From Acidobacteriota bacterium (GTDB lineage Bacteria > Acidobacteriota > CAIWXX01), in the NCBI GenBank assembly GCA_040755995.1, contig JBFMAF010000034.1:64001-128000 (forward strand): a stretch of 64,000 nucleotides of DNA, written 5' to 3'. The notes under the pieces were generated by a model. That model made no database searches. It was not told the DNA's origin and saw only the letters and a program-made list of their open reading frames with translations. Every line of letters begins with the position of its first letter. Position 1 is the first letter of the stretch. Made by a program: the position numbers and the translations under genes. Below, piece by piece: positions 3,134 to 46,934 of this stretch.

Positions 3134-3139
3134 TGAAGT

Positions 3140-19857: not shown

Positions 19858-20098
19858 CGGCGTTCGACACGTTCTTCCTGACGGTGGTCGCGCTGGTGAT
19901 CCTGACAGGTGTCCTCACGGAGGGGGGCGACTTGCATTCACACCGGAGCTGGCCTGTGTGCTCTACGTGGTGCACCTGGGCGTGGTGCTCTGCCTCTTCA
20001 TCACGTTCCCCTACTCCAAGTTCGCGCATATGCTCTACCGTACGCTGGCCATGGTTCACGCCAGAATGGCGGGCATCGCGTCACCGCGCGCCAGGTAG
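19858..20098 (+). pseudogene. qmoC: Diverged, frameshifted 3' fragment of qmoC
   Basis: AFDTFFLTVV..LTE then FTPELAC..PYSKFAHMLYR in a different frame; many third-position differences versus 4055-4294. Confidence 0.9.
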
Positions 20099-20166
20099 AG
20101 CGCTGCTGAGGATGGGACAATCCAACAAGTCTCGCGAGATAATTTCAACGAAAGGGAGGAGTACTC

Positions 20167-21435
20167 ATGAGTAAACTCGTATCGCCGCATGGGAGTGCGG
20201 ATCTGAAGGCTCTTCTGCTTCAAGGCAAGGAAGCGGAGGAGGAGAAGAAGAAGGCTGAGACGCTCAAGAAGGTGCCCATGACCAGCCGGGAAACCTCGGA
20301 CCTGATCATGATGGCCATCGGAGCTTTCACGCCGCTGCCGGGGTTCATGGGCCGGGACGATTGGAAGGGCTGCTGCGAGAGCTACCAGCTGCCGTCCATG
20401 AAGAACCTGTTCTGGCCCATCCCGATCACGCTGTCGGCCGAGCAGGCGCTTGCCGATTCGATCAAGATCGGTGAGGAAGTCGGGCTCTGGGACACGGAGA
20501 CCGAGGCCTACGTCGGGACTATGAAGGTCACCGAGAAGTACGGGATCGACAAGGAGTACGAGTGCAAGCAGGTGTTCCGGACCAACGACAAGGCGCATCC
20601 GGGCGTGCAGAAGGTCATGGAGCAGGCACCCGTCAACCTGGCCGGTCCGATCCGGCCGTTCTCGGAGTCCTACTACCCCGAGATGTTCTCCACCATCTAT
20701 CAGCGCCCCGCGGATGCGAGGAAGCTGTTCCAGGAGCGCGGGTGGAGCACCGTGGCGGCGCTGCAGCTGCGCAACCCGATGCACGGCTCGCACGCATACC
20801 TGGCGTGGATCGCCATCGAAGTCTGCGACGGCGTCTACATCCACCAGCTCGTCGGCAAGCTGAAGCCGGGAGACATACCGGCCGAGGTGCGCGTGAAGGC
20901 GATCGATGCGCTCGTGAACAAGTACTTCCGCAAGGAGCGCGTGATTCAGGGCGGGTACCCGATGGAGATGCGCTATGCCGGACCGCGTGAGGCGCTGTTG
21001 CACGCCGTGTTCCGCCAGAACTACGGCTGCAGCCACCTGATCGTCGGCCGCGACCACGCAGGTGTCGGCGACTACTACGGCCCGTTCGATGCGCAGAAGA
21101 TCTTCCTGGAGATCCCGCACGACGCACTCGAGCTGAAGCCGCTGCCGCTCGACTGGACCTTCTACTGCTACGAGTGCAAAGGCATGGCGTCGATGAAGAC
21201 CTGCCCGCACGAAAGCAAGGCCGTGATCGATGAGAACGGCAACTACAAGGGCGGCGCCAGGCTCCTGCTCTCCGGTACGCTACTTCGCAAGCTGATGAGC
21301 GAAGGCAAGCCGGTGCCCGAGGAGTTCAGCAAGCCCGAGGTCATCGCGATCCTCAACGACTACTACAACAGCCTCGAGAAGAAGGTGGAGATCAAGCTGC
21401 ACGGATTCGCCACCGGCGAAGCCGGCAAGAAGTAA
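20167..21435 (+). CDS. sat: Sulfate adenylyltransferase, copy 2 (full-length, intact)
   Basis: 422 aa, nearly identical to copy 1 with a few substitutions. Confidence 0.95.
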
Positions 21436-21466
21436 TTACCCCCTTTACCCTCGCCTAACTTTCACC

Positions 21467-21498
21467 AACCGGGGCCTCCAGGCCCCGGTTTTTCTTTT
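21467..21498 (+). terminator. Intrinsic terminator after sat copy 2
   Basis: Same hairpin and T-tract as 5669-5700. Confidence 0.85.
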
Positions 21499-21689
21499 CG
21501 GCTCATGAGGTGCCTGACCACAATAGGTCGTGCCCGATGTGTTCAGTGGTCTGGATGCGCTTCTTCTTTCCCCGCCGCATGACGCCCGTGCCTTGCTCGA
21601 GGGAAACGGCGAGGCGGTGAGGGGGAGACGCGGAGAACCGAACACCACCTCTTCACCGCGTGTCCGCGTCGCTGCGACTCCCTCTCTCT

Positions 21690-24675: not shown

Positions 24676-25035
24676 ACCACGGCCCGTTCGATTCGCAGAA
24701 GATCTTCCTCGTGATCCGGCACGGCGCTCGAGCTCAAGCCGCTGCCACTGGACTGCACATTCTACTGCTACGAGTGCAAGGGCATGGCGGCGAGGAAGAC
24801 CTGCCCGCACGAGAGCAACGCGGTGATCGACGAGAACGGCAACTACAAGGGCGGCGCCAGACTCCTGCTCTCCGGCACGCTGCTCCGCAAGCTGATGAGC
24901 GAAGGCAAGCCGGTGCCCGAGGAGTTCAGTAAGCCCGAGGTCATCGCGATCCTGAACGACTACTACGACAGCATCGAGAAGAAGGTGGAGATCAAGCTCC
25001 ACGGTCACGCCACAGGCGCCGCCGAGAAGAAATAG
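24676..25035 (+). pseudogene. sat: sat 3' fragment, copy 3 (frameshifted)
   Basis: Matches copy 1 from about 5276 to the stop, with indels and substitutions. Confidence 0.92.
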
Positions 25036-25065
25036 CCACCCTCTATACCCTTGCTACGCTTCACC

Positions 25066-25098
25066 AACCGGGGCCTCCGGGCGCCGGTTTTTCCTTTC
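25066..25098 (+). terminator. Degenerate copy of the sat terminator
   Basis: AACCGGGGCCTCCGGGCGCCGGTTTTTCCTTT. Confidence 0.7.
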
Positions 25099-25111
25099 GG
25101 TAGCAAAGTTC

Positions 25112-26425: not shown

Positions 26426-27213
26426 CGATCCGGCCATTCTCGGAGCCCTACTACCCCGAGATGTTCGCGAGCATCTACCGGAGGCCTGCTGACGCGAGGA
26501 AACTCTTCCAGGAGCGCGGGTGGAGCACCGTGGCGCCCCTGCAGCTGCGCAACCCGATGCACGGCTCGCACGCATACCTGGCGTGGATCGCCATCGAAGT
26601 CTGCGACGGCGTCTACATTCAACAGCTCGTGGGCAAGCTGAAGCCGGGAGACATCCTGGCCGAAGTGCGCGTGAAGGCGATCGATGCGCTCGTGAACAAG
26701 TACCTCCGCAAGGAGCGCGTGATCCAGCGCGGGTACCCGATGGAGATGAGGTATGCCGGACCGCGTGAGGCGCTGGTGCACGCGGTGTTTCGCCAGAACT
26801 ACGGTTGCAGCCACCTGATCGTCGGCCGCGACCACGCGGGTGTCGGCGACTACTACGGCCCGTTCGATGCGCAGAAGATCTTCCTGGAGATCCCGCACGG
26901 CGCGCTCGAGCACAAGCCGCTGCCCCTCAATTGGACCTTCTACTGCTGCGAGTGCAAGGGTATGGCGTCGATGAAGACCTGCCCGCGCCAGAGCAAGGCC
27001 GTTATCGATGAGAACGGCAACTACAAGGGCGGCGCCAAGCTGCTGCTTTCCGGCACGTTGCTCCGGAAGCTCGTGAGCGAAGGGAAGCCGGTGCCCGAGG
27101 AGTTCAGCAAGCCCGAGGTCATCGCGATCCTGAACGACTACTACAACAGCATCGAGAAGAAGGTGGAGATCAAGCTGCACGGATTCGCCACCGGCGACGC
27201 CGGCAAGAAGTAA
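26426..27213 (+). pseudogene. sat: sat 3' fragment, copy 4
   Basis: Matches copy 1 from about 4850; lacks the first ~160 codons; missense changes at conserved sites (HQL>QQL, QGG>QRG, CPH>CPR). Confidence 0.92.
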
Positions 27214-27244
27214 CACCCCCTCATGCCCTAGCTACACATTCGCC

Positions 27245-27274
27245 AACCGGGGCCCCGGACCCCGGTTCTTTCTT
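27245..27274 (+). terminator. Degenerate copy of the sat terminator
   Basis: AACCGGGGCCCCGGACCCCGGTTCTTTCTT. Confidence 0.65.
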
Positions 27275-31929: not shown

Positions 31930-33723
31930 TCATGCACCGTGGGCCAGGGCCCGAAACTCGGCAGACCTCTGCATGAGCTCATCCCATGTACCGCTGATTT
32001 CAATCCGGCCGGCTCGCAGGAAGACGATACGATCACAGTACTGCACGGTCTGCATGCGGTGTGCGACCAGAAGTATGGTGGTGCGGCCGTGCAGGAAGCC
32101 TATGGCCTGCGCGACGGCCTGCTCGGTGCGGGTGTCCAGCGCGGAGGTGGCTTCATCGAATATGAGCAGCTCGGGGTCGCGATACACCGCCCGTGCAATC
32201 GCCACGCGCTGTCTTTCTCCGCCGGAGATCGTCACGCCGCGCTCGCCGAGCATCGTGTCCAGCCCTGCGGGGAGGCCGGCTACAAAATCCTCGAGCTGCG
32301 CCAGGCGGAGCGCCGCATTGACCTTTTCGTCCACGATGGAGCCATCCGGGACCCCGAACGCTATGTTTCGTCGCAGGGTATCGTGGGTAAGGTAGATGTT
32401 CTGGGGCACGTAGCCGATCTTCCGGCGCCAGGCCTCCGCCCTGTCGCTGATGTCCACGTCATCGACGGTAACTCGGCCCATGGAGGGCGGCAGCAGTCCG
32501 AGAATGATGTCGATGAGCGTGCTCTTGCCTGAACCCGTGGCGCCGACGATGGCAACCGATTCCCCCTTGGCCACGATGAGGTCCAGATCCTTCAAGACAG
32601 GTTCGGCCTCGGGTCCGTAAGCAAAGAAGACGCCCTCCACTGCAAGCCGGCGCTGAAAGGCGAGAGGCCTGTCGCGATCTGCTTCGCCGTGCGGGACGGC
32701 CACTGTGCCTATCAGGCGCATGTCTTCGTAGACCAGGTGGGCATCCGCCGCCCCGTACCGAATGTTGTTCCACTGGACGGCCATCCGGTTGAAAGAAGGA
32801 ATGGCCCGGAATCCTGCATAGGCGAACAGGCCCAGCAGCGGAAGCACTTTTTGCCCGCCGCCGGCTTCCGCGCAGGTCATACCGACAACCAGCAGAGGGA
32901 TGCAGACGAAAACCGTCTCGACTAGAAACCGTGGGGCAGCGTTGAGAGTGGCGTGCCACTTGCGTGTCTTCTCGAGGCGGAGCTGGAGCGACAAGAACAT
33001 GTCGTACCAGTGGCGCTCGCCATCCATGGCCTTCAGTTCCCGGATGCCGCCGAGCGCCTGCTGCAGGGCCTCCCGGGACTCTACCGAGAGCTGGTGCTGC
33101 TCGGCACCGAGGCGGTAGAACCGTCTGTGAGTCCCGTACAGCAACGCTCCGAGCACAAGGCCGATCGCGGCCAGCGACACGAGCGTTGTCACCGGCGAAG
33201 CGAGAATCAGCACGGCGGCCATGCCCGCCAGAACCAGTATTTCGGATATGCATGAAACCGCCGATTCCAGCACCCTCCGTACGGCATCCTCCGTGCTTCG
33301 CACGACCTTGTGCGTGAGGCCTGCGGAACTGCGGCGAGAATGGAACGGCAACGGGGCACTCAGATACTGCAACAGGAGACCGCTGGAGAGCGCGGCCACC
33401 GTCCTGCCTGTCACGGCGCTTCTGAGGTAGGTTGAACCGAGGAGGAAGAAGTTCTTGAATACGAAAAGACACGCGGCCGCGAGCGTGAACGAGAGGATGA
33501 GCCCGGTCGCGTCCCGGATGCCGAGCGCTGAGTACAGCATAGAGACGACGGGCATGCTGTAGGCGCTACTCGGGCTGTCCATGATCCTTATAAGAGCAAA
33601 GACGGCCGCGGCGCCCAGGCTTTCGAGCACGGCCTCGACAAGCGAAAGGGGGATGAGGCCGAACCACCCGAGCCGCATGCGCGGGCTCAGAAGGGACAGG
33701 AGCTTGCGTATACTTGCAAGCAT
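31930..33723 (-). CDS. ABC exporter, permease plus ATPase (PglK/MsbA-like, glycan-associated)
   Basis: N-terminal transmembrane domain, GATGSGKST, ISGGERQR, DEATSALD. Confidence 0.9.
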   Translation of the reverse strand: MLASIRKLLSLLSPRMRLGWFGLIPLSLVEAVLESLGAAAVFALIRIMDSPSSAYSMPVVSMLYSALGIRDATGLILSFTLAAACLFVFKNFFLLGSTYLRSAVTGRTVAALSSGLLLQYLSAPLPFHSRRSSAGLTHKVVRSTEDAVRRVLESAVSCISEILVLAGMAAVLILASPVTTLVSLAAIGLVLGALLYGTHRRFYRLGAEQHQLSVESREALQQALGGIRELKAMDGERHWYDMFLSLQLRLEKTRKWHATLNAAPRFLVETVFVCIPLLVVGMTCAEAGGGQKVLPLLGLFAYAGFRAIPSFNRMAVQWNNIRYGAADAHLVYEDMRLIGTVAVPHGEADRDRPLAFQRRLAVEGVFFAYGPEAEPVLKDLDLIVAKGESVAIVGATGSGKSTLIDIILGLLPPSMGRVTVDDVDISDRAEAWRRKIGYVPQNIYLTHDTLRRNIAFGVPDGSIVDEKVNAALRLAQLEDFVAGLPAGLDTMLGERGVTISGGERQRVAIARAVYRDPELLIFDEATSALDTRTEQAVAQAIGFLHGRTTILLVAHRMQTVQYCDRIVFLRAGRIEISGTWDELMQRSAEFRALAHGA

Positions 33724-34135
33724 TCTACTGCCTCCCCGGGATCAGGCTCTTGTGCACAGTCTCGGTCTTCTCTCCGAAAGCTGCCCGCGAAACAGCCGCT
33801 GCCAATTTGTACACCAGCAAGCCCAGAGCCTCGGATAGTGATGTTTCAACGGCAATGACGACGGGGTTGGCGCGGCACGGCGGCTGTCATGGGAACTCTT
33901 TCGCGAGACCGAATTCACTCATCCCGCATGCACTATAGGGCATCGTTGCACGTTCCGTCAACGTATGCGCAGACCCACCCGTCGAGCGTTCCGCACTTTG
34001 ACAACCGGCCTACCTCAACATATATTCTCGCGGTGCCATGTTCTCATCGGCTTCCGCGTGACGAAGGCCGGGCATGGTCGACGATGGAGTTGCCCTAGCC
34101 CTTCGAGCCTAGTCGTGGATATCTACAGGACTGGA

Positions 34136-35389
34136 ATGAATCCGGGAACCTTCAATCTCGTAAACGGATCATGCCATCGGCGCCAGGAGGAAATAGCCGC
34201 GGTCAAGAGATTCCTTGTCTCGAACAGATGGAGAGAGGAAGGCGGTGTCAATCAGGCGGACCTGGTCATATTCTTTGCCTGCGGTGCGATGCGTCTCAAT
34301 GTCGATGAAATGATGGTGAGCCTCACCGACGTCATTGGCAAGATGAAGAACGGCGCAGAGCTCGTCGTCGGCGGCTGTCTGCCCCGGACAGACAGCGAGA
34401 GGCTGAGCCAGGTCTTCACTGGAAAGACGATTACGTACGCCGATTACACCGCGCTCGACACGCTCCCCGGCGTCGAGAATCGGTTCGAGACACTGCCGAA
34501 GGTGTTCGGCAATGGCGCGTTCTGCCCGCCGCTCGTCAAGCCGGGCCTGCGCAAAGCGGGCGCTCTTCGCCTCGTCAGGCTCTCACTTGACCTCGCGCGT
34601 GTGTTGATGCGCCACCGGCCGACATCCATTCTGAGGAGAATCGCATCAAGGCTCAGGCAATACGAGCGCATGGTGATCAGCGTTGGGGCAGGCTGCTCTC
34701 GAACCTGCCCCTATTGTGCGAAGCGATTCGCCCTGGGCCCCGTGAGGAGCAAACCGGCAGAGAAAGTCATGCAGCGGATTGCGGCAGGGAGAATGCTGGG
34801 GTACCGGACCTTCGATCTCTTTGCCGATTCGATCGGAGACTACGGCCAGGATCTGGGCACCGACTTCGGAGCGCTCCTCGACAGCATCGCGGACTTCGAG
34901 GCAGCCGTCAGCGTCGGGATCTATGATCTACACCCCGAGGATTTCATCCGGTACTTCGACAGAATCCTCGGTTTGTGCAAAACGGACAGGTTGCATTACC
35001 TTTACGTAATCACGGAATCGGGAAACGCGCGGGTGCTGAGATCGATGCGTCGGGAGATCGACACCGTGGATCTCGCTCGAAAGCTTCAGGCAATTCGCGG
35101 CTACAAGAGCGTTTTCATGCAAACGGCGATCATTGTCGGCTATCCGGGCGAGACGGATGAGGAGTTCGACGACACGCTGGCGCTGCTCGGCGAAGTCAAT
35201 TTCGACAATGTGTACGTGCATTGTTATTGCGATATGCCGAACACAGAGTCATCCCGGCTCGACGGCAAGATCTCCAAGGAGACCGTGTCGAGACGATTGC
35301 GCAGGATAGCCGCTGCCGGCATCAGGCACAGCGTTAGCGAGGCCAGGCGCGAGTGCGATCACTCGTTCCCATGGGGCTCGTTGGGCTGA
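34136..35389 (+). CDS. Methylthiotransferase (MiaB/RimO/MtaB)-like radical SAM protein, paralog 1, no TRAM domain
   Basis: N-terminal Cys triad (SCHRR, FACG, GGCLP), CSRTCPYC, IIVGYPGETDEEFDDT. Confidence 0.85.
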   Translation: MNPGTFNLVNGSCHRRQEEIAAVKRFLVSNRWREEGGVNQADLVIFFACGAMRLNVDEMMVSLTDVIGKMKNGAELVVGGCLPRTDSERLSQVFTGKTITYADYTALDTLPGVENRFETLPKVFGNGAFCPPLVKPGLRKAGALRLVRLSLDLARVLMRHRPTSILRRIASRLRQYERMVISVGAGCSRTCPYCAKRFALGPVRSKPAEKVMQRIAAGRMLGYRTFDLFADSIGDYGQDLGTDFGALLDSIADFEAAVSVGIYDLHPEDFIRYFDRILGLCKTDRLHYLYVITESGNARVLRSMRREIDTVDLARKLQAIRGYKSVFMQTAIIVGYPGETDEEFDDTLALLGEVNFDNVYVHCYCDMPNTESSRLDGKISKETVSRRLRRIAAAGIRHSVSEARRECDHSFPWGSLG

Positions 35390-35446
35390 TGAGGGCGTGG
35401 CGTTGAGGCTGGCACCGCCGATTCAACTATCTGCATCTAGAATCGC

Positions 35447-36685
35447 GTGAGATCGTTTCACTTCGTCGACAATTCGTGCTATCGCCGGCAGGAAGAGGTG
35501 TCAATGGTGCGCAGGTTCTTCCTGTCGAACGGATGGACGGAGTCAGCGACGGTGGAGAATGCCGACTGCGTGATCCTGTTCACCTGCGCGGAGATGCGTT
35601 ACAAAGCGGCCAACATGATCGGAGAAGTGGAAAGGCTGTCGGCTCGGATCGGCCGTGATTCGGAGTTGATTGTGGGAAGCTGCCTGCCGAAGACCAACAA
35701 GGAAGCGCTGGCGAAGGTCTTCAGCGGGCGCACGATCACGCCGACCGATTTCAGCGCGCTCAACGCTCTTCCGCAGATCAAAGTCAAGATCGAGGACATG
35801 CCACCCGTCTTTGGTAGGAATGCGGCCTTCAGGCCGTTCCCTGCGCGGAATCGTTGGAGCAAGGGCAACGCCATTCCGTACGGGATATCACGTTGGGCTT
35901 CCAGGCTTATGCTTCGCCACCTTCCATTCGACGGTCTGAAGGGCCTCGCGATAAAGCTCGGAAGAACCAGGGCGATGCGAATCCATGTATCGGCGGGCTG
36001 TGCCAAGAACTGCTCTTACTGCGCGATTCATTTCGCGACCGGGCAGGTCAGGAGCAAACCGCTCGAAGTGATCATGCAGACTATCTCCGAGGGGCTCCGG
36101 CTGGGATACAGAACTTTCGATCTCATCTCCGACTCCATCGGCAGCTACGGCCTGGATCTCGGCACGGACCTGGGCGAGCTATTCGATCGTGTTCTGGGAC
36201 ATCCGGATCGCTTCACGATCGGCATCGACGATCTACATCCACACGAGTTCATCAGGTACTTCGACGGGGTCTTCTCCCTGTGCAGCGCGGGCAAGATGTC
36301 GTACCTCTACGTGCCGGTTCAATCAGGCAATGAGCGGATACTGGGATTGATGAATCGCCGGTGCAATGTGAAGGACCTGACGGACAAGCTCCTAATGATG
36401 AGGCACCTTGGAGATGTTTTCCTGGAGACGAGCGTCATCGTGGGATTTCCCGGGGAAACCGAGGCGGAATTCGACGACACGGTTCATTTCTTGAAGACGG
36501 TCGATTTCGACAACGTGTTCATACACTACTACTGCGACATGCCGAACACCACATCCTCGATCCTCCCCGACAAGACGGACAAGGCCACCATGGTGGAGCG
36601 ATTGAACCGGATCAATCGTTCAGGCATCAGGCACTCTGTGGCGGCCACCCGCCACGAGTGGGACTGCAATCTGGCGCTTCCATGA
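35447..36685 (+). CDS. MTTase-like radical SAM protein, paralog 2
   Basis: SCYRR, FTCA, GSCLP; CAKNCSYC; QSGN; VIVGFPGET. Confidence 0.85.
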   Translation: MRSFHFVDNSCYRRQEEVSMVRRFFLSNGWTESATVENADCVILFTCAEMRYKAANMIGEVERLSARIGRDSELIVGSCLPKTNKEALAKVFSGRTITPTDFSALNALPQIKVKIEDMPPVFGRNAAFRPFPARNRWSKGNAIPYGISRWASRLMLRHLPFDGLKGLAIKLGRTRAMRIHVSAGCAKNCSYCAIHFATGQVRSKPLEVIMQTISEGLRLGYRTFDLISDSIGSYGLDLGTDLGELFDRVLGHPDRFTIGIDDLHPHEFIRYFDGVFSLCSAGKMSYLYVPVQSGNERILGLMNRRCNVKDLTDKLLMMRHLGDVFLETSVIVGFPGETEAEFDDTVHFLKTVDFDNVFIHYYCDMPNTTSSILPDKTDKATMVERLNRINRSGIRHSVAATRHEWDCNLALP

Positions 36686-37947
36686 GCAAGAAGTTCCTCA
36701 TCATCGGCAAGTCGTGCAGTCGGCGGCAGGAAGAAGTGTCCATGGTGAGGAGGTTTCTCCTGTCGAACGACTGGAACGAAACCGGGCGACTGCAGAGAGC
36801 AGACCTGATTGTCTTCTTCGCCTGCGCCGGTGTCCGCTGCATCGTGAACGAGAACCTGGAGGAAATAGCAGAAACCCAGAAGAGAATGAAACCGGGCGCA
36901 GAGCTGATTGTCGGAAGCTGCCTGCCGAGAATGGACACCGAGAGTCTTCGAAGCGTCTTCAAAGGGAGAACCATCACCCCGACGGACTTCACGGCGTTGA
37001 ACGATCTCCCCAATGTCCGGCTGCCTTTCGAAGCCATGCCCGCCATGTGGGGCAGGGATGCTGCGTGCATCCAGTTGAAACACCCCGGATCGATCGCTGC
37101 CTCACGAATGTGGATCGAGGACGCAGCATTCCAGTGCGTCAAGTTCATCATCGAAAAGCGGCCGGCCCCCTTCTTGAAGCGGACGGCCTTCTGGCTGAAG
37201 AGGCGCAACATCGTGAGCTTCTCTGTCGCCGCAGGCTGCTCGAGGAAATGCGCCTACTGTGCCAGGCCGTTCGCGAGCGGAAAGGTACGGAGCAAGCCGA
37301 TCGAGGTGGTCGTGGAGAATATACGCAGAGGACTCAGCCTGGGCTACAGAAGCTACAACCTGTATGCCGACTCCATCGGCACCTACGGCTCTGATCTGGA
37401 CGTCAGTCTCGGGGATCTGTTGGAGCGGATTCTGGGCATAGACGGGCGTTTCACAATCGGCCTGTATGACGTACATGCGCAGGATTTCATCAGGTTCGTT
37501 CATCCGATCAAGCGCCTGTGTGAATCGGGAAAGCTCCATTACCTCTATGTGGGCGTCCAGTCTGGGAACGAGCGCATCTTGAAACTGATGAGGCGGCCGT
37601 GCGACGTGGAGGACCTGGCGGCGAAACTGGCCGACATACGGCGCTTCGAGCACGTGTTCATGCAGTCGGCGATCATCGCAGGATTCCCAGGGGAGACCGA
37701 CGACGAGTTCGAAGATACGCTTCGGCTGTTGAAGCGGGTCAACTTCGACAACGTCTTCGTTCATTGCTACTGCGACATGCCGAACACCGAAGCGTCCGGC
37801 ATGCCGGCCAAGGTCGACAAGGATGCAGTGCGCGGGCGGCTCACCCGTGTCACACGCGCAGGCATCCATCATGACGCAGCGGAGGCCCTGCAAGAGTGGG
37901 ACGGCAACCCCGCTATTCACGATTATTTCGGACATCAGGCCCGATGA
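36682..37947 (+). CDS. MTTase-like radical SAM protein, paralog 3
   Basis: SCSRR, FACA, GSCLP; CSRKCAYC; QSGN; ATGA-coupled to paralog 2. Confidence 0.85.
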   Translation: MSKKFLIIGKSCSRRQEEVSMVRRFLLSNDWNETGRLQRADLIVFFACAGVRCIVNENLEEIAETQKRMKPGAELIVGSCLPRMDTESLRSVFKGRTITPTDFTALNDLPNVRLPFEAMPAMWGRDAACIQLKHPGSIAASRMWIEDAAFQCVKFIIEKRPAPFLKRTAFWLKRRNIVSFSVAAGCSRKCAYCARPFASGKVRSKPIEVVVENIRRGLSLGYRSYNLYADSIGTYGSDLDVSLGDLLERILGIDGRFTIGLYDVHAQDFIRFVHPIKRLCESGKLHYLYVGVQSGNERILKLMRRPCDVEDLAAKLADIRRFEHVFMQSAIIAGFPGETDDEFEDTLRLLKRVNFDNVFVHCYCDMPNTEASGMPAKVDKDAVRGRLTRVTRAGIHHDAAEALQEWDGNPAIHDYFGHQAR

Positions 37948-39254
37948 GATCAATCAGGAGCAGGCCGGCACCGGCCGCGCCGATCTTGTCTGCTCCCGCT
38001 GATGCATCCACCCCTGTGAAGACCTTCACATTCGTCAACCAGTCGTGCCACCGGCGTCAGGAGGAAATCGCCATGGTCAGGCGGTTTCTTCTTCTCAACG
38101 GCCTTGCCGAGGACTCGGATCTGACGAGAGCGGACCTGGTAATCCTCTTCACCTGCGCGTTCTGCCAGAGCAAAATCGCGGACATGTTGAATGAGATAGC
38201 GCGCATTCGTTCCGTCATCAGGGAAGGATGCGAGCTTGTCGTCGGAAGCTGTTTGCCAAAGACAGACGGCGCCGGGCTGCGGAAGGTCTTCAGCGGAAAA
38301 ACGATCACGCCTACCGATTTCAGCGCGCTCAACCGGCTCCCCGGGATCACCTCCGGAATCGAGGAGATGCCGGAGGCGATCGGAAGGCAGGCTGCATGCG
38401 AGCCGCTCGTCATCCAACCACCCTCGAACACGGCCAGGGCTCGCTTGAAGGCACTTGCGCTGGGCGCTACCAGATCGCTGATGCGCACATGGCCGGCGCT
38501 GCCTCTCGAAAGAGTCGCTACCAGGCTCGAAACCGACCGGCGAATGGGAGTGTTTATCTCTTCAGGCTGCATGCGAAAGTGCTCGTATTGTGCGATCCGG
38601 TTCGCCACTGGGCAGCTCAGGAGTAAACCGCTGGACGTGGTCACTCGAGCGTTTTCCGAAGGGCTGGATCGGGGATATCGCAAGTTTGAGCTGTATGCCG
38701 ATTCAATCGGCGACTATGGGTTGGATATCGGCACGGACCTCGGCGAGCTGTTTGACTGGTTCTCGAAGAGCCATCGGGTCTTCAGCGTCGGAATCTATGA
38801 TCTCCACCCGCAAGCGTTTCTGAAGTTCTTTGGAAAGCTCTTCTCACTCTGCAGGGCGGGCAGGATTCACTATCTCTATGTTCCCCTGCAATCGGGCAAC
38901 GCAAGAATCTTGAAATTGATGAATCGCTCGTGCGATGTGAACGCTCTCTTGAGGAAGCTCCTGGAAGTGAGGAAACATCGTGGTGTGTTTCTTCAGACCA
39001 GCGTCATCGTGGGCTTCCCGACCGAAACAGACGCGGAATTCGAGGAGACGCTGGCTTTTCTAAGGGCAGTCCGGTTCAGCAATGTGTTTGTCCATTTCTA
39101 CAGCGACATGCCCAATACGGAATCATCGAAACTGGCCGACAAGATAGACAGGGCGACCATGCTGCTGCGGCTGAAGCGACTGGGGAGAGCCGGTATCAAT
39201 TATGACCCTGACATGGCCCGGCACGAGTGGGAAGCTACCCCCGCTCTTGGTTGA
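37944..39254 (+). CDS. MTTase-like radical SAM protein, paralog 4
   Basis: SCHRR, FTCA, GSCLP; CMRKCSYC; QSGN; ATGA-coupled to paralog 3. Confidence 0.85.
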   Translation: MRSIRSRPAPAAPILSAPADASTPVKTFTFVNQSCHRRQEEIAMVRRFLLLNGLAEDSDLTRADLVILFTCAFCQSKIADMLNEIARIRSVIREGCELVVGSCLPKTDGAGLRKVFSGKTITPTDFSALNRLPGITSGIEEMPEAIGRQAACEPLVIQPPSNTARARLKALALGATRSLMRTWPALPLERVATRLETDRRMGVFISSGCMRKCSYCAIRFATGQLRSKPLDVVTRAFSEGLDRGYRKFELYADSIGDYGLDIGTDLGELFDWFSKSHRVFSVGIYDLHPQAFLKFFGKLFSLCRAGRIHYLYVPLQSGNARILKLMNRSCDVNALLRKLLEVRKHRGVFLQTSVIVGFPTETDAEFEETLAFLRAVRFSNVFVHFYSDMPNTESSKLADKIDRATMLLRLKRLGRAGINYDPDMARHEWEATPALG

Positions 39255-39353: not shown

Positions 39354-40532
39354 ATGAGCCGCGTTGGATTTCTCTGGGACTCGCTGAGCGCCAATACGGG
39401 TGACCAGGCCATCGGTCTGACCATGCTGCGCCTGGCGCGGCGCGCCGGGCTGCGCGGCCTCGATCCCGTGCGGATCGGCGAGCCGCTGGCCGGCCGCTAC
39501 GACATGCTGGTTGTCGGCGGCGGCGAGCTGCTCCACCCGCCGGGCCACGGCTTCTACGACCTCTTCCGCGTCCCGGGCGAGCACGTGCTCAGCACTGTGG
39601 GCACCTCCGGCGTCGTCGATGCCAGCCATCTCTCGTCCTACCGGCTGGTCACCGTGCGGTCATCGGCGGACCGCGACAACCTGCGCGGACTCTCGCGCGA
39701 GGTGAAGGTCGCTCCATGCCTCAGCGTGCTGTTCCCAGGGCTGGCCGAGGACCATCCGGCGGCCATGGAGCGGGACTCGATTCTGGTGCACCTGCACGCG
39801 GGAGCGTTCTTGCCGAGCACCGCCCCGACGATGGTGTCGATGCTGCGGCGGCTGGGCCGGCCGGTTGCGCTGCTTCCGTTTACACCCTACATCCGCGACG
39901 CCGACATACAGGCAGTCCTCGCCGCCGCCGCGGACATCGCTCCACCGCTCGCAGTCGCCGGCCCGGACCAGGTATTCGCCGCCATGCGCCGGGCTGGTGC
40001 AGTGGTCGTCGCGTCGCTACACGCCGCGATCTTCGCGTACATCGCCGGCGTGCCCTTCCTTGCAATTCCGTACGTGCCGAAGGTGAGGCACTTCATGGCA
40101 GAGCGCGGACTTGAGCACCGGCTGCTGCCGGACGTGCTGCGCCTCCCAGAGAGGCTGCATCTCCTCGCCGCCGATGGCGTCGACTGGCAGGCGACGGCCG
40201 CGGCAGATGTGGCGTCCGCAGGCGCGGTCGTGGATGAGATATTCGCCTTGGTCGAGGACGCCCTTGCGCGGTCCGGTGGAGGTCGGGCCTGGGGAGCCGC
40301 CTGGAGGGAGCCGGCCTGCCCCGAGCGGGCGCACGCCGAAACCATGGGCCGCATTGCTGAGTTCGGCCGCCGGCAGGCGCAGGTCACGGCCGACGTTCTC
40401 GCCGGCCGTCACAGATTGCGGCGACTGATCGCAACCGGCATTCGGACGGTGGTGAAGCATGTGCCGGCGATCCGCCGGCTGGGCTGGGCGCGAGCGGTGT
40501 GGGAGCGGTGGCTGGTGACTCATGGCTGCTGA
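39354..40532 (+). CDS. Polysaccharide pyruvyl transferase family protein
   Basis: NTGDQAI, VGGGELL, VTVRS, SLHAAIFA..GVP..IPYVPKV. Confidence 0.75.
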   Translation: MSRVGFLWDSLSANTGDQAIGLTMLRLARRAGLRGLDPVRIGEPLAGRYDMLVVGGGELLHPPGHGFYDLFRVPGEHVLSTVGTSGVVDASHLSSYRLVTVRSSADRDNLRGLSREVKVAPCLSVLFPGLAEDHPAAMERDSILVHLHAGAFLPSTAPTMVSMLRRLGRPVALLPFTPYIRDADIQAVLAAAADIAPPLAVAGPDQVFAAMRRAGAVVVASLHAAIFAYIAGVPFLAIPYVPKVRHFMAERGLEHRLLPDVLRLPERLHLLAADGVDWQATAAADVASAGAVVDEIFALVEDALARSGGGRAWGAAWREPACPERAHAETMGRIAEFGRRQAQVTADVLAGRHRLRRLIATGIRTVVKHVPAIRRLGWARAVWERWLVTHGC

Positions 40533-41445
40533 CGGCGGTCCCAGCGGCTCCACCGAGCCCCTGGTCTACGTGGTGGTGCTGAGCTGGAACCGCGCCGCCA
40601 CGACGCTCAGGTGTATCGAGTCAGTTGCCGGCAGCAGCTATCGGAACGCCCGCGTGGTTGTCGTCGACAATGCATCCGCCGACGATTCTGTGGCACGCAT
40701 TCGGGAGCGATTCCCTCAGGTTCCGCTCATTCAGAACCCAGCTAACCTGGGGTACGCCGAAGGCAACAACGTGGGGATACGGTACGCGATGGAGAGGGGA
40801 GCCGAGTTCGTGCTGGTGCTCAATGACGACGTCTTCATTGAACCGGACGCGCTGGGCCACATGGTGGCCGCGGCGGGCCCAGGGGTGGCGGCCGTCGGGT
40901 GCAAAGTGCGCCTCTTCGACGAGCCCGACCGGTTGTGGGCGGCCGGCGATCTCAATTTCCGGACGGCAGATGCACACCCGAAAGACGACGGCCGTTTCGA
41001 TGCGCCACGCGACCTGGACTACGCCGTGGGTTGTTGCATCCTCCTCCGCGCCGGCGTCCTCGATGAGATCGGGCGTTTCGATCCTTCATACTTCCTCGAG
41101 TTCGAGGAAGTCGACTGGTGTTCCCGCGCCCGGAAGGCGGGTCACAGGATCGTTTATGAGCCGAGAGCCGTGGTCTACCACAACCATTCGGTGTCTTTCA
41201 CCGACAGTTGTTCGCCGGCCTTCCACTATCTCTCCGCCCGCAACTGTCTTCTGTTCTGGAAGCGCAATGACGTCGTGCTTAGCGGACGCCCCCGCGCCCT
41301 CTACGGCCTGATTTCGTGGCTGGCCCAGCTTCGTCTCATTCTGCGCACAAGGGGTTCCAAGCTGCGACGGATCACTGCCGCTACGCTCGGGGTCGTCGAC
41401 TACTACCGCGGGCGCTTTGGCGCTCCACCTCCCAACCTCTACTGA
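40522..41445 (+). CDS. Glycosyltransferase family 2
   Basis: VVVDNAS, NLGYAEGNN, LNDD, FEEVDWC. Confidence 0.9.
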   Translation: MAADGGPSGSTEPLVYVVVLSWNRAATTLRCIESVAGSSYRNARVVVVDNASADDSVARIRERFPQVPLIQNPANLGYAEGNNVGIRYAMERGAEFVLVLNDDVFIEPDALGHMVAAAGPGVAAVGCKVRLFDEPDRLWAAGDLNFRTADAHPKDDGRFDAPRDLDYAVGCCILLRAGVLDEIGRFDPSYFLEFEEVDWCSRARKAGHRIVYEPRAVVYHNHSVSFTDSCSPAFHYLSARNCLLFWKRNDVVLSGRPRALYGLISWLAQLRLILRTRGSKLRRITAATLGVVDYYRGRFGAPPPNLY

Positions 41446-41461: not shown

Positions 41462-42691
41462 GTGAAGATCCTGTACGCCGCCGGCGACTTCCCGGCAGAG
41501 CCTCTGAACGGGTGCCACTGGTTTGCGTACAACCTGATTAACTGCATGGCACGATCGCACGAGTGCCACCTGATCAGTCTTGCCATGCCGGGGCGAGCCG
41601 CGTGCGTCCGGGAATGGGAGCGGTGCCTGCCGGGCCTGCGCGTGCTGGATGTTCTCCCGGTGCGGCACCGTCAGCTGGTGCGTTGGTCGAAGGGGGCGAA
41701 TTACATCACGAACCTCCGGATCCCCCATCTCGTGCAATGGATGACACCGGGGTTCACTCGTGCACTTCGACGGGTGGTCCGCGAGACCTCCTACGACCTC
41801 GTCCACTTCACCGACATCACCCTGGTCTTCTATCGCAACCTTGTGCGTGGCTCCCCAGTCGTGATCTCCGGGCCCGATCCGGCCTCGCTCCATCTCCGGG
41901 GCAACATGCCGTTTGAACCTTCGTTCGCAAAGAGAGTGAAGTTGGCCACGACGGCCCGGGCGTACGGCAACATAGAACGGACCCATCTAAAGACGTTCTC
42001 AGCGGTCCACGTGGTGTCCGAGGCGGACGCCGAGCACTTGAGGCGCAGCGCCGGACTGAAAAACGTCACTGTGATTAACCATGCGGTGGACCCGAGATTC
42101 TTCGCCGTCCCCATTGAGGCCTGCGGCGACGAGGATGCAGTTACCATGTTCAGCTCGGGATCCTTCTCGGTGCCCTACATACGTACGCCGTTCATGAGCT
42201 TCTTCGAGAGGCACTGGGATGCGATCCGGCGATGCCGCCCCGCGGCACGCTGGGTTGTCGCGGGACCGGGAGCGCCAGCCGATGTGAAGAAACGGCTCAC
42301 GGCGGCGCCCGGTGTCGAATACCACGAGTGGATTCACGACTATGACGGCGCTCTCTTTCGATCCGACATCGCCGTTTTTCTGGATGGCAGCGGAACGGGC
42401 ATGAAGACAAGGGTGCTGCAGGCCATGGGCGCCGGAAAGGCAGTGGTCGGCACGCCTTTCGCCTTCACAGGGCTTGAGGTCAAACACGGAGTGCAGGGCT
42501 TCATCGCGGACGGGCACGATTCCTTGATGAGGGCCCTGGTCGCTCTGATCGAGTCGCCCCGGCTGCGGCGTGAAATCGGCGGGGCCGCGAGGGAACACGT
42601 CAGGGCGAGATTCACGCTGGAAATCACGGGCCGAAAGTGGGATGCCCTGTACGAGCGAATGTTGCGGCAGCATCGGGATACACGGCTGTGA
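41462..42691 (+). CDS. Glycosyltransferase family 4 (GT-B)
   Basis: VVSEADA, GTGMKTRVLQAMGAGKAVVGT. Confidence 0.85.
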   Translation: MKILYAAGDFPAEPLNGCHWFAYNLINCMARSHECHLISLAMPGRAACVREWERCLPGLRVLDVLPVRHRQLVRWSKGANYITNLRIPHLVQWMTPGFTRALRRVVRETSYDLVHFTDITLVFYRNLVRGSPVVISGPDPASLHLRGNMPFEPSFAKRVKLATTARAYGNIERTHLKTFSAVHVVSEADAEHLRRSAGLKNVTVINHAVDPRFFAVPIEACGDEDAVTMFSSGSFSVPYIRTPFMSFFERHWDAIRRCRPAARWVVAGPGAPADVKKRLTAAPGVEYHEWIHDYDGALFRSDIAVFLDGSGTGMKTRVLQAMGAGKAVVGTPFAFTGLEVKHGVQGFIADGHDSLMRALVALIESPRLRREIGGAAREHVRARFTLEITGRKWDALYERMLRQHRDTRL

Positions 42692-42818: not shown

Positions 42819-43820
42819 ATGGAGATCAAGGGATTGCGCGTGCTCGTCACGGGCGGTTGCGGATTTCTCGGATCGTGGATTGTCGAGGACCTTGTGAAAA
42901 GAGGCGCCGACGTCACGGTCTACGATAACCTCAGCCGCGGGACTCAGGACAACCTGAAGGCGGTTGAGAAGGATGTCAGACTCTCCGTTGCGGACATACG
43001 CGATCAGCAGAAGGTCTACGAGGCTTGCCGGACGGCGGATGTCGTTTCTCACCATGCTGCTCAAATCGTGTCGTCGTTGGAAAGCTCGATCGAGACGATC
43101 GAGGTCAATCTGTCGGGCAGCGTGAAGGTATTCGAGGCCGCCGCCGCGGCCGGCGTCAAGAAGGTGATCTACGCCTCGTCCGAGACCGTGTACGGGCATG
43201 CCAACGCCCTTCCACAGGATGAAAACCATCCGACCAATCCGCTCTGGCCATACGGAGTCACCAAGCTGGCCGTGGAGAAGTTCGCCAGCATCTTCCACGC
43301 CTACTCCGGGATGAAGATGATCGGGTTGAGGTACAGCGACATATACGGGCCGAGGGAGTGGTACGGGCGCGCGTCGACGGTGTTGCTGCGAGGCGCGATG
43401 CGCGGCGAGCAGCCGGAAATGCCCGATGCCGATCAACTCAGGGACTACTGCTACGTCGCGGATGCCGTCGCGTTTCACAACCTCTGCATCGCTGAAGATG
43501 AGCTCGATGACGAGATCTTCAATGTCTCCACCGGAGTCGCGACGAGTACAGGGGAGCTGGCGGAGCTGATTGCGGACACCTGCCGCCTGGATTGGAGCAC
43601 TCCGCGGCTTGCCCACGGCGACGCAAGGCACGAAGACGTGCGGGCGAGCCACGTGCCGCATGCTGAGTGCAAGGCGATCGTGCTGGACAACTCGCGGGCG
43701 AGGCGCATCGGGTGGGTGCCCCACGTCATGCTGCCGGAGGGGATCAGGCACCAGCTGGAGTGGCTCCGTGCTCATCCTGCTGCATGGGACGGAGCGCGGG
43801 TTGCAGGAGAGGTTGGCTAG
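42819..43820 (+). CDS. NAD-dependent epimerase/dehydratase
   Basis: VTGGCGFLG, ASS, YGVTK. Confidence 0.9.
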   Translation: MEIKGLRVLVTGGCGFLGSWIVEDLVKRGADVTVYDNLSRGTQDNLKAVEKDVRLSVADIRDQQKVYEACRTADVVSHHAAQIVSSLESSIETIEVNLSGSVKVFEAAAAAGVKKVIYASSETVYGHANALPQDENHPTNPLWPYGVTKLAVEKFASIFHAYSGMKMIGLRYSDIYGPREWYGRASTVLLRGAMRGEQPEMPDADQLRDYCYVADAVAFHNLCIAEDELDDEIFNVSTGVATSTGELAELIADTCRLDWSTPRLAHGDARHEDVRASHVPHAECKAIVLDNSRARRIGWVPHVMLPEGIRHQLEWLRAHPAAWDGARVAGEVG

Positions 43821-44795
43821 GTGAAGAGACAACAGATGCTGTATCTGTCTCGCTCCGATGTCGAGAAGGTGGCATTGGATATGCCCACGATCATTGCCCT
43901 CCTCGAGGAGGCCTTCAGGGAGAAGGGGCATGGGCGCGTCGAGATGCCTCCGAAACCCGGCATCCACACACGCCCGGACGCGTTCATTCACGCGATGCCC
44001 GCTTACATCCCGGCGCTGCGGTCGGCGGGGATGAAGTGGGTGAGCGGCTATCCGGACAACCAGAAGCTCGGCCTCCCATACATCTCCGGCCTACTGATTC
44101 TGAACGACGCCGAGACGGGACTGCCGTACGCTGTCATGGATTGCAGCTGGATTACGGCCTACCGGACTGGAGCGGCCTCGGCGCTGTCAGCCAAGTATCT
44201 GGCGCGCCCATCAAGCGAGGTCGTCGGAGTGCTGGCGTGCGGTGTCCAGGGGCGCACAAACCTCATCGCCCTCGCGTCGGTGCTGCCGATCAAGCGCGCC
44301 TACGCCTTCGACATCTCCGCCGCGGTCCAGGAGCGCTTCGTCGACGAGATGCATTCCAGTCTTGGCATCGAGGTCATCGGGGTCGACGGGCCCCGCCGCG
44401 CGGTCGCCGAATGCGACGTCGTCGTCACCTCAGGACCGATTCTCAAGCATCCGGTGCCGGCCATCCAGAAGGACTGGCTGTGTCCCGGGGCCTTCGCAAG
44501 CGCGGTGGATTTCGACAGCTACTGGGCCGGCGAGGCTCTGGCGCAGTTCGACAAACTGGCCACCGACGACATTGCCCAGTTCGACTACTACCGGAGCGCC
44601 GGCTATTTCCAGGCGACTCCGCGGCCCTATGCGGACCTGGGCGAGCTGGTGGTCGGGTTCAAGCCCGGCCGCGAGCGAGACGACGAGCGAACCATGGCGA
44701 TGAACCTGGGGCTGGCGCTCGACGACATGGCGGTCGCGCCGGAGATCTATCGGAGGGCGCGGGAGAAGGGCATTGGGACGATGCTGGAGCTGTGA
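43821..44795 (+). CDS. Ornithine cyclodeaminase/mu-crystallin family protein
   Basis: HAMPA, GMKWVS, ITAYRTGAAS, GLALDDMA. Confidence 0.88.
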   Translation: MKRQQMLYLSRSDVEKVALDMPTIIALLEEAFREKGHGRVEMPPKPGIHTRPDAFIHAMPAYIPALRSAGMKWVSGYPDNQKLGLPYISGLLILNDAETGLPYAVMDCSWITAYRTGAASALSAKYLARPSSEVVGVLACGVQGRTNLIALASVLPIKRAYAFDISAAVQERFVDEMHSSLGIEVIGVDGPRRAVAECDVVVTSGPILKHPVPAIQKDWLCPGAFASAVDFDSYWAGEALAQFDKLATDDIAQFDYYRSAGYFQATPRPYADLGELVVGFKPGRERDDERTMAMNLGLALDDMAVAPEIYRRAREKGIGTMLEL

Positions 44796-44958
44796 GGTGT
44801 CTGTCTTCGTCCCGGAGGGCGCCCGATACCTCGCTCTCCCCATGAACCACGCCGTGCCGACAGGATGCAGTCCATTGCCAGGGTTCGCAGGGGGCCAGGC
44901 GGCTCCCCGTTGAATCTCTCAACTTGCGGGACCACGCTGGTCTGTGCAGAATGCCGAT

Positions 44959-45978
44959 ATGAAACGGCGTGAGTTCCTTGGGTCGGCCGCGACAGTTGCG
45001 GGTCTTGTGATGACTCCGAGCGGCGTCCTCAGCTCGGATGCGAAGAGCCGTGTCGTTCAAGTGTTCCACGCTGACGCCGTGCGCCCCGGCAGGCAGGTGG
45101 ATCAGGCTATCGTAGCGAAGATGCTTCGCAGCGGCCTCAGGGCGCTGGCCGGCGAGGGCCAGTCCATCGGCAAGTGGGTCCGCCCGGGCGATCGGGTCGG
45201 GCTCAAGATCAACACGCTGGGCCGCCCGCTTCTGTTCACGCATCGCGAGCTGATACTAGCCCTCGTCGAGGAGCTGAAAGAGACGGGGGTCAGCGAGAAC
45301 AACATCATTGTATGGGACCGGTTCGAGAACCATATGTTGGAGGCGCGATTCGTCATGAACAACTCGGATCGCGGCGTGCGCTACGTCGCGACGGAATCAG
45401 GCGGCGATGGGCCTGCCAGACTCGACGACAACGAGCCCTACCAGTCTGCGCATGACGATCCGCGCGATCGCCACAACGGCGACACCGCCTCGCGATTCTC
45501 CCGGATCTTCACTCGGGAATGCGACAAGATCATCAACATGCCGATCCTGAAGGATCACGGCCAGACGGGCGTGACCCTTTGCCTCAAGAACCTGGCCTTC
45601 GGTATCACGACGAACAACAACAGGTTTCATGGAGCCAGCCACGTCGGACCGTTCATATCCGATATATGCGCCCGGCCGCTAGTGAAGTCCAAGACCGTCC
45701 TGCATATTCTTGACGGCCTGGAAGGATGCTTCAACAATGGGCCGGCACCGCGACATCCGGGCTCGTTTTCGACGCCCCGCACAATCTGGCTCGGCTTCGA
45801 CCCCGTGGCCGTCGACGTGGTCGGGCGCAGGGTAATCGAAGAGCAAAGGCGCGCAGGTGGGTTGCCCTCGCTTGCGGCCATGAACAAGCCGGTCGACTAC
45901 ATAGAGATGGCGGCCCGAAAGGGAGTAGGGGAATGCAATCTCGATCGCATCTCCCTCGAAAAGATCTCCGCTGCCTGA
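44959..45978 (+). CDS. Tat-exported DUF362 (LarA-superfamily) protein
   Basis: MKRREFL, VGLKIN, INMPILKDH..GVTLCLKN, DPVAVD. Confidence 0.8.
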   Translation: MKRREFLGSAATVAGLVMTPSGVLSSDAKSRVVQVFHADAVRPGRQVDQAIVAKMLRSGLRALAGEGQSIGKWVRPGDRVGLKINTLGRPLLFTHRELILALVEELKETGVSENNIIVWDRFENHMLEARFVMNNSDRGVRYVATESGGDGPARLDDNEPYQSAHDDPRDRHNGDTASRFSRIFTRECDKIINMPILKDHGQTGVTLCLKNLAFGITTNNNRFHGASHVGPFISDICARPLVKSKTVLHILDGLEGCFNNGPAPRHPGSFSTPRTIWLGFDPVAVDVVGRRVIEEQRRAGGLPSLAAMNKPVDYIEMAARKGVGECNLDRISLEKISAA

Positions 45979-46037
45979 TTGGCCTTGCCAGGTTCGCGCA
46001 TCGCTAGACAGGGACTCCCTCGATGGGCGCCCCCCTA

Positions 46038-46934
46038 TCACACGAATGCATCCTTGTCGTACCCGATCTTGATGAGCTCGATCCTCTGTGGGTCCGCCGT
46101 GCCGAGATGGTACTTCGTGTCGGCGATGGCTATGTGCTTTGCGGGCGGGCTGAGCGGCCGGTCTTCTGCGAAGTAGTCGCGTCTGATGGCCTCGATTATC
46201 CGCAATCCGGTGGCATCCACTGCGACAGCATCGAACCCCAACAACAGCCCGTAGTACTTCCAGACATACTTGGGGCTGAAACTGTGGGGACCGAAGCTGT
46301 GGAATTGCGGCGTGAACATCACGAGCACGTTCAGCCGTGTCTTGCCCCTCACGATTGGCAGATCCCAGATTGACGCCAGATCCGCGCAGGAATCGCCATG
46401 AATGGAGCTCGGATCCGGCAAGAACATGATGTAGTTCTTGATCAACCCTCCGACCCCCGCCCAGTGGTGCGAGCGCATCGGACGGGCGTTGACGAGCGCC
46501 GTGGCCTTCTGGAAGATCGGATTCCTCAGGACGTTCAAGTCGTCGATGCTGATATTCGGTTCCTTGACGCCGGCCTGGACAATCCGCTTCTTCAGCGCAT
46601 TCTCGACCTCCGCTGTCGTCTTGAGATATGGCCACCTGTTATTCTTGATGCCGACGATGTCGTCCGGCTCGATGATCGTCTTCCAGGCGCTCTGCGGGTC
46701 GGGCTTGCCGGTCAGGGCCTTGATGCCCGTGTCCAGCATCTCCTGTACTACGGCCTGCTGAGGCATGCCGGTTTCGCCCAGGACGTTGAGATCGCGCACG
46801 AGCACGACCCGGCTCTTGTCGGACTTTGCGGCAGTCGTCTTCTCCGCTGCCGAGAGCAACAGGGGCGTAGCTATGGCGGCGGCCGAGGCGCTCTTGATGA
46901 ATTCCCGCCGGCTGATCGATTCGATCGACTTCAT
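46038..46934 (-). CDS. Tat-exported DUF362-like protein
   Basis: SRREFIK, VGIKNN, RSHHWAGVGGLIKN, DAVAVD. Confidence 0.75.
   Translation of the reverse strand: MKSIESISRREFIKSASAAAIATPLLLSAAEKTTAAKSDKSRVVLVRDLNVLGETGMPQQAVVQEMLDTGIKALTGKPDPQSAWKTIIEPDDIVGIKNNRWPYLKTTAEVENALKKRIVQAGVKEPNISIDDLNVLRNPIFQKATALVNARPMRSHHWAGVGGLIKNYIMFLPDPSSIHGDSCADLASIWDLPIVRGKTRLNVLVMFTPQFHSFGPHSFSPKYVWKYYGLLLGFDAVAVDATGLRIIEAIRRDYFAEDRPLSPPAKHIAIADTKYHLGTADPQRIELIKIGYDKDAFV

Follow-up and report, generated by a model that had tools for sequence, protein, structure and literature searches.

A tandem array of four TRAM-less, methylthiotransferase-like radical SAM enzymes among glycan genes of an Acidobacteriota bacterium

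Methylthiotransferases (MTTases) use two molecules of S-adenosylmethionine (SAM): one methylates a sulfide on an auxiliary cluster, and the second leads to a substrate radical that takes the SCH3 group, as described in the excerpts of PMC10702137 and PMC5352715 used here. According to the latter excerpt there are five MTTase families, and the cysteines of their UPF0004 domain are spaced CX35-36CX32-33C. In the excerpts of PMC10702137, PMC5352715 and PMC2952846, tRNA A37 and ribosomal protein S12 are the only known substrates, and the described enzymes are all three-domain proteins with a TRAM domain. Here we describe four adjacent genes at 34136..39254 in a 64,000-nucleotide stretch of an Acidobacteriota genome (assembly GCA_040755995.1, contig JBFMAF010000034.1, positions 64,001 to 128,000; this whole stretch is called the window). 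Judged by sequence, their products are MTTase-like in architecture, have no TRAM domain and score below the cut-offs of the described families.

The closest described system is e-MtaB, the CDKAL1-type methylthiotransferase for the tRNA modification 2-methylthio-N6-threonylcarbamoyladenosine (ms2t6A; TIGR01578). Like the window paralogs it has UPF0004 and radical SAM domains, it is sister to them in both of our trees, and among the equivalog models it scores them highest or nearly so (124-154 bits, well short of the 314.7 cut-off). The paralogs differ from it in having no TRAM, an insertion of about 30 residues between the domains, a setting in a glycan operon and a makeup of four types. MiaB (7MJV-7MJZ), MtaB (9A6D, TIGR01579) and RimO (4JC0, TIGR01125) share with the paralogs the fold of both domains (Z 27-29, root mean square deviation (rmsd) 3.0-3.4), two three-cysteine cluster sites, and the QSG and GFPxET motifs. 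The paralogs are set apart from these three by the missing TRAM, by identities of 21-26%, by CxRR in place of CxxN, and by the presence of true copies of all three in the same genome. LipS1 and LipS2 of Thermococcus kodakarensis provide an analogy, since both are radical SAM enzymes with two clusters and act in turn, each inserting sulfur at one position; they are annotated as biotin synthases, insert SH on octanoyl and are likened here by description, not by sequence (excerpt of PMC9585515).

The four genes are type A (P0001, 34136..35389, 417 aa), type B (P0002, 35447..36685, 412 aa), type C (P0003, 36682..37947, 421 aa) and type D (P0004, 37944..39254, 436 aa, with an alternative GTG start at 38016). 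All are intact open reading frames (ORFs) on the forward strand, and they correspond to the four paralogs of ~410-435 aa pointed out in an earlier note on this DNA. The B/C and C/D junctions are ATGA overlaps, and both pairs are predicted to be translationally coupled. Recent tandem duplication and assembly artefact were ruled out, as the copies are only 45-54% identical to one another and each is nearer to orthologs elsewhere (70-80%).

The three N-terminal cysteines are spaced CX35CX31C in 4/4 paralogs, the second gap being 30-33 in the genome's own MTTases and 28 in e-MtaB, and CxxxCxxC and G[FY]PxET were also found in all four, as the earlier note had read them. Radical_SAM (PF04055) was over its cut-off in every paralog; UPF0004 (PF00919) scored 26, 31.2, 25.1 and 30.5 bits against a cut-off of 27 (two of four over), with E-values of 2e-5 to 2e-7. 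In the close homologs the six cysteines are invariant (77/77, 90/90, 95/95 and three times 96/96), the CX3CX2C radical SAM motif is present in 96/96, and the Ser of QSG, the Gly, Pro and Glu of GFPxE and a late Arg are likewise invariant, with the Gln of QSG kept in 95/96. The motifs RRQEE, DMPNT and E[W/C], previously proposed as private to the array (the last as (R)xEW/C), occur in 4/4. Because RRxEE (57/96) and DMPxT (92/96) are common in close homologs and each occurs in only 1/133 wider-family proteins, we take these two as sub-clade markers.

Pfam detected no TRAM domain in the four paralogs, in 17 aligned relatives (0/17 at E<=1) or in close homologs (0/96). The paralog chains end 74-82 residues after G[FY]PxET, and the genome's own MiaB, MtaB and RimO continue for 127-135 residues beyond G[FY]PxE. 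We searched 1.84 billion representatives with a profile and used the best 150 matches; in 143 of these plus the four queries the tail after GFPxE is 48-115 residues (median 69), whereas canonical proteins, collected by a metagenome scan with a generic GFPGET pattern that returned mostly canonical MTTases, have tails of about 120-148 residues. In the whole genome PF01938 matches just two places, miaB and an unrelated ORF of 372 codons located on a different contig, which leaves no split TRAM gene next to the array. A truncated or split canonical MTTase was ruled out from this and from the end point shared by close homologs (tails mostly 73-85), in a check that included no separate search for fused or longer forms.

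An AlphaFold2 model of type B (pLDDT 90.4), whose C-terminus consists of two helices, aligned with MtaB 9a6d at Z 28.8 and rmsd 3.1 over 341 residues, with MiaB 7mjw at Z 28.4 and with RimO 4jc0 at Z 28.2; overall, matches to the three enzymes fell at Z 27.3-28.8 and rmsd 3.0-3.4 over about 340 residues. These alignments end at chain residues 363-390 of 421-451, before TRAM, so that Pfam, tail length and structure all agree with the absence of the domain first noticed in the sequence. Scores were lower for the B12-dependent radical SAM enzyme MgmA (Z 22.8) and the sugar-acting radical SAM enzyme AprD4 (Z 20.2). The cobalamin-binding domain PF02310 was not found in the four paralogs, whose N-terminus is UPF0004, and matched 1/17 relatives at E 0.097.

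The whole-family model TIGR00089, which includes TRAM positions, gave 167, 183, 177 and 187 bits against a cut-off of 251, and the MiaB, MtaB, RimO and e-MtaB equivalog models gave 108-154 bits against cut-offs of 315-357, all missed. The genome has a separate canonical set with full tails: MiaB at 457 bits and RimO at 434, both over, and MtaB at 349, just under 357. Four other genomes (G403, G1066, G1456 and G1457) each have three weaker matches in the canonical range plus one strong match. A FastTree of 136 rows unites 101 of its 102 TRAM-less rows in a single clade (support 93), sister to archaeal e-MtaB (99); the lone row outside, L027, scores as a true e-MtaB. In an IQ-TREE of 38 rows the 20 TRAM-less rows make up one side of a branch with a Shimodaira–Hasegawa-like approximate likelihood ratio test (SH-aLRT) value of 100, again sister to e-MtaB (92). 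Rows were picked by similarity to the query, and the trees thus show a clade, not the membership of every TRAM-less MTTase. Rows left out were two L136 neighbours (ambiguous bases), L222 and L233 (near-duplicates), L231 and L235 (long tails, L235 being e-MtaB) and L234 and L238 (no anchor called), and 41/121 loci of the homolog set had no full gene. The clade, the missed equivalog cut-offs and the genome's own miaB, mtaB and rimO together support the earlier suggestion that the TRAM-less paralogs are a separate, new subfamily of MTTases, as far as sequence can tell.

The TRAM-less clade spans Planctomycetota, Thermodesulfobacteriota, Chloroflexota, Thermoplasmatales, Bathyarchaeia and others. 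It is patchy, with 4/401 genomes of its own phylum and 4/401, 11/401, 1/251 and 6/201 in four other samples (a 4/401 tally includes G196, whose tail is 121 residues); a plasmid tblastn gave one match at 25% identity. Clade proteins in metagenomes carry the database labels MiaB or CDKAL1, which appear to be mislabelling that turns them into false tRNA enzymes. Arragain et al. 2010 are reported to have named a fifth MTTase family, MTL1, which is MTTase-like and of uncharacterised function. It is not known outside epsilon-proteobacteria, and none of the 80 titled clade loci belongs to that group (0/80), a tentative difference from the cassette. We found no description of TRAM-less or glycan-linked MTTases in the literature searched, which left out most subscription papers.

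Several members of the wider clade are of unusual form or setting. P0023 is a fusion of a MurB-like part, UPF0004 and two radical SAM stretches; P0084 has two radical SAM domains and P0119 a 300-residue N-terminal extension. The Thermoplasmatales genome G404 (L159, L232-L235) has seven matches, one e-MtaB and several TRAM-less, three of the latter standing in tandem next to B12-radical SAM genes and a methyltransferase gene. In a Methanosarcinales genome, a highly divergent TRAM-less member (L128:9343-10644) comes directly after trm1. In L020 and L172, of Bacteroidota type, a SAM methyltransferase, an FtsX-like permease and a class A beta-lactamase-like protein are encoded together with the TRAM-less gene in a unit that is conserved, and stand-alone PqqD-family genes (L019:4312-4626 and L224:7618-7896) lie beside TRAM-less members, one of them in a GT56/GT2 cluster.

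A tree of close homologs resolved four types, A (3 rows, support 100), B (30, 99), C (19, 99) and D (27, 100), with solo proteins at the base. The four window genes are spread over the four types, one in each, and a further search brought in six more type A proteins. Proteins inferred to share a contig were of the same type in 2/33 pairs (18 sets) against 10.5 expected, the mean of 20,000 shuffles of which none was as low, though with related genomes in the set this is not a true probability; sharing was inferred from equal "longest contig" size and checked for genome G001, whose contig has 49,958 bases. The sets include B-C-D three times, with A joining on contigs of 9752, 43852 and 61566 bases. 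All four types keep all six cysteines and differ in the residues near both clusters. After the second auxiliary Cys, type A has C(G/A)(A/G)(F/M)R (CGAFR), type B TCAEMRY, type C AC(A/S)G(V/L)R and type D TCAFCQS, of which CAFCQS is common to the solo relatives; after CxxxCxxC, type A has CAKRF, types B and D AIRF, and type C CA(K/R)P(F/L/A)ASG. Three residues past the second ligand, 21/26 type D and 14/19 solo proteins have an additional Cys, and types A-C have an extra conserved Cys at position 363. Because they are close to the cluster ligands, we take the type-specific segments as probably facing the substrate. From the third Cys to the cluster motif there are 106 residues in types A-C versus a median of 74 in 98 canonical proteins; the additional ~30 residues between the domains are modelled as two helices with a net charge of +8 to +10 and a hydrophobic moment of about 0.6, and are often missing in type D (spacing 72-106, median 88). 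The four copies are four old orthologous types with type-specific residues near both clusters, a conserved makeup that was absent from the earlier note and is new in this analysis.

The array lies in a glycan locus as previously described, between an ATP-binding cassette (ABC) exporter and pyruvyltransferase, glycosyltransferase (GT2 and GT4) and epimerase genes, all of which were recovered by Pfam or NCBIfam. The exporter (31930..33723, reverse strand; Pfam ABC_membrane and ABC_tran), divergent from the array, is MsbA/HepA/PglK-like (NCBIfam MsbA 4e-79, HepA 2e-76, PglK 1e-74, all under cut-off) and a candidate lipid-linked glycan flippase. On the forward strand the array is followed by a polysaccharide pyruvyltransferase-like gene (39354..40532; PF04230, E 1e-10), a GT2 gene (40522..41445; PF00535/PF13641), a GT4 gene (41462..42691), an NAD-dependent nucleotide-sugar epimerase/dehydratase gene (42819..43820; PF01370, E 3e-45) and, abutting the latter, an ornithine cyclodeaminase/alanine dehydrogenase-like gene (43821..44795; PF02423, E 6e-60).

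A second cassette is found in G001, a genome of the same family as the window genome, its type B protein being labelled Acidobacteria by the source. Its order is a sugar-O-methyltransferase-GT2 fusion (methyltransferase domain TIGR04371), A-B-C, GT2, GT4, Wzm, Wzt, a pyruvyltransferase-like gene and a Kdo-hydroxylase-like gene. The A, B and C proteins are 70-71% identical to the window orthologs, there is no D, and the exporter, Wzm/Wzt, is of a different kind from the window ABC exporter. The window pyruvyltransferase-like and GT4 proteins are 68% and 70% identical to the G001 copies, and the window GT2 is 77% identical to the GT2 half of the fusion beside type A; because these values match those of the radical SAM orthologs, the three genes appear to be co-inherited with the cassette despite the exporter change. 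The epimerase and cyclodeaminase-like genes had no match in the 37 kb around the G001 array. Among close GT4 homologs, 3/5 are on contigs equal in size to cassette contigs and are taken as the same contigs. L157, a near-outgroup just outside the cassette clade, lies beside Wzx, pyruvyltransferase, GT2 and GT4 genes.

The Kdo-hydroxylase-like gene of the G001 locus (PF11004; L015:6284-7720) follows the pyruvyltransferase-like gene. The known Kdo (3-deoxy-D-manno-oct-2-ulosonic acid) hydroxylase is oxygen-dependent, which is odd beside oxygen-sensitive radical SAM genes.

Both cysteine sets are conserved, the MTTase fold ends before TRAM, the four types are conserved, and GT2, GT4 and the pyruvyltransferase-like gene travel with the cassette; starting from these observations and by analogy with known enzymes, we infer the chemistry and substrate of the four proteins. 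The reading we lean to, with a little less than an even chance of being right, is that every type places –SCH3 on a nucleotide- or lipid-linked sugar, at a position or step of its own, ahead of export. Methylthio transfer would be the default chemistry because the parts for both steps are conserved: a first SAM would methylate a sulfide bound to the N-terminal cluster, a second would give the 5'-deoxyadenosyl radical that abstracts a substrate hydrogen, and the substrate radical would take the SCH3. For the substrate we propose a sugar building block, with a nucleotide sugar or lipid-linked repeat unit the probable choice, since TRAM loss, extra-copy status and co-inherited glycan genes all point to a sugar precursor; TRAM would be dispensable because such a substrate is neither tRNA nor S12. 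The basic helical insertion of types A-C may be a membrane anchor or a binding site for an anionic substrate. The four stable types suggest separate positions or steps, comparable to LipS2 then LipS1 acting for lipoate, and the methylthiolated sugar would then be exported as part of a glycan. A bolder and less probable version is a four-enzyme assembly line that attaches several methylthio groups, each at a defined carbon, to the repeat unit of a surface glycan, giving a poly-S-methylated capsule or O-polysaccharide in sulfur-cycling anaerobes.

The sulfide would be supplied by the host's dissimilatory sulfur metabolism. The contig appears to carry a dissimilatory sulfur cluster: dsrA is over cut-off about 9 kb before the window (G000:C34:54090-56315), and Qmo-like genes (an HdrA-FlpD fusion and an Fe-S protein) lie beside sat at window 887-4294. 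The sulfide-rich lifestyle suggested earlier gains support from these genes, insofar as the host looks to be sulfur-cycling. Over-cut-off dsrA was also detected in G001 and G027, and not in G002, which is without the array.

Several observations weigh against sugar methylthiolation. The Asn three residues after the first Cys, present in 15/15 parsed canonical proteins, is Arg in 77/77 close homologs, a swap that could alter the cluster chemistry. Only the three of five close GT4 homologs mentioned above were assigned to cassette contigs, and no close GT4 match was found for the cassette contigs of 16768, 141326, 16616, 23449, 43852, 61566 and 20002 bases; with so many contigs lacking one, the sugar partners seem to vary. 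L141, the closest solo relative, lies inside the cassette clade between hrpB and pgpA/NAD kinase. Across the wider clade, Pfam placed a glycan gene within three genes at 13/57 loci (10/38, 2/14 and 1/5) and none at 44/57, and many loci instead have B12-radical SAMs, SAM methyltransferases, prenyl synthases or housekeeping genes; other neighbours are FemAB/GNAT, YcaO, PqqD and AMP-binding enzymes. A local search of 6 kb, with each seed's own locus left out, found glycan genes at 13/53 TRAM-less versus 5/112 canonical loci, and at 11/35 versus 1/44 loci with at least 8 kb of flank, an enrichment whose size is overstated because TRAM-less loci supplied the seeds and kin genomes occur in both sets. 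Glycan linkage of the wider clade therefore looks like an enrichment and not a rule, and the earlier expectation that homologs are linked to glycan genes stands for the window cassette, G001 and the three inferred GT4 contigs but not for the wider clade. In addition, dsrA was not found in G401 or G403, genomes of unstated completeness. The one methylthio sugar named in the excerpt of PMC9912281 is the mycobacterial 5-methylthio-xylofuranose.

Two alternatives deserve the most weight, each rather unlikely and neither above the other. The enzymes may tailor the glycan by another chemistry, with the auxiliary cluster used for substrate binding or redox: insertion of a thiol or thioether with no methylation, C-methylation, or dehydration or epimerisation of a sugar by a radical route. 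The glycan linkage is the same under this view, which would also accommodate the Arg in place of the CxxN Asn, the extra conserved cysteines (near the auxiliary site in D, at position 363 in A-C) and the match of the fold to AprD4, although sequence, tree and fold all give methylthiotransferases as the closest relatives, the SAM-binding motifs are kept and no B12-binding domain was found. Alternatively, methylthiolation may be directed at a non-glycan small molecule, lipid or peptide (an acyl substituent, a prenyl lipid or a cofactor), the glycan genes being mere neighbours or carriers of the product. The many wider-clade loci with B12-radical SAM clusters, prenyl synthases, AMP-binding enzymes, YcaO or PqqD in place of glycan genes point this way, as does L141 alone among housekeeping genes, and small-molecule methylthiolations that are enzyme-orphan do exist, namely methylthio-F430 (excerpt of PMC10702137) and a methylthio-hydroxyquinoline in the gut (excerpt of PMC13389010); the inheritance of GT2, GT4 and the pyruvyltransferase-like gene with the window cassette, at matching identity across an exporter change, argues for a sugar.

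That tRNA or a protein is still the substrate, with the basic insertion replacing TRAM, we consider very improbable. The paralogs are extra to a full miaB, mtaB and rimO set, the distribution is patchy, four divergent types sit in a glycan operon and the insertion is often missing in type D. These points stand against the sister relationship to the tRNA enzyme e-MtaB, the charge of +8 to +10 on the insertion of types A-C, the location outside TRAM of YmcB/YqeV substrate discrimination (excerpt of PMC2952846) and the few distant members by translation genes (trm1 in L128; prfA/prmC in L220, L223 and L225). Least probable is an obligate complex in which the four types act as subunits and together make one modification, for although co-contig copies are nearly always of different types and B/C and C/D look translationally coupled, every type keeps all six cysteines, subsets vary (A-B-C without D in G001) and solo relatives exist.

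If sugars are indeed methylthiolated, the TRAM-less branch would bring a third substrate class to the MTTases, its members would be the first carbohydrate methylthiotransferases, and C–S bonds could be made at sugar carbons that are unactivated. The wider TRAM-less clade would then serve as a broad reservoir of methylthiotransferases for small molecules. The four natural paralogs, with their type-specific, probable active-site residues, make a comparison set for MTTase site choice. The MiaB and CDKAL1 labels hide such proteins in metagenome databases. New here are the four-type cassette and the count by which the wider-clade glycan link is partial.

Back-to-back sigma70-like promoter matches were found by consensus scan at 33932..34026, on both strands. 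The forward match (TTGACA-17-TATATT, 11/12, 33998-34026) is upstream of type A and fits the predicted start at 34136; the reverse match (TTGACG-18-TATAGT, 10/12, 33961-33932) is on the ABC exporter side. The scan gave 4 sites versus 2.5 +/- 1.7 in shuffles, and these are matches only. Directly after the glycan operon, at 44944-46934, are two convergent genes for DUF362 proteins with twin-arginine-like N-termini.

The window also has two full ATP sulfurylase (sat) genes (98% identical in amino acids; 4055-5704 and 19860-21502) and two sat 3' fragments (91%; 24676-25100 and 26426-27274). No integrase was seen among the long ORFs scanned. All four copies end in the same terminator-like tail followed by different cargo, either methylase/HerA/transposase genes or toxin-antitoxin-like pairs, and the arrangement suggests a stack of cassettes at the sat 3' end.

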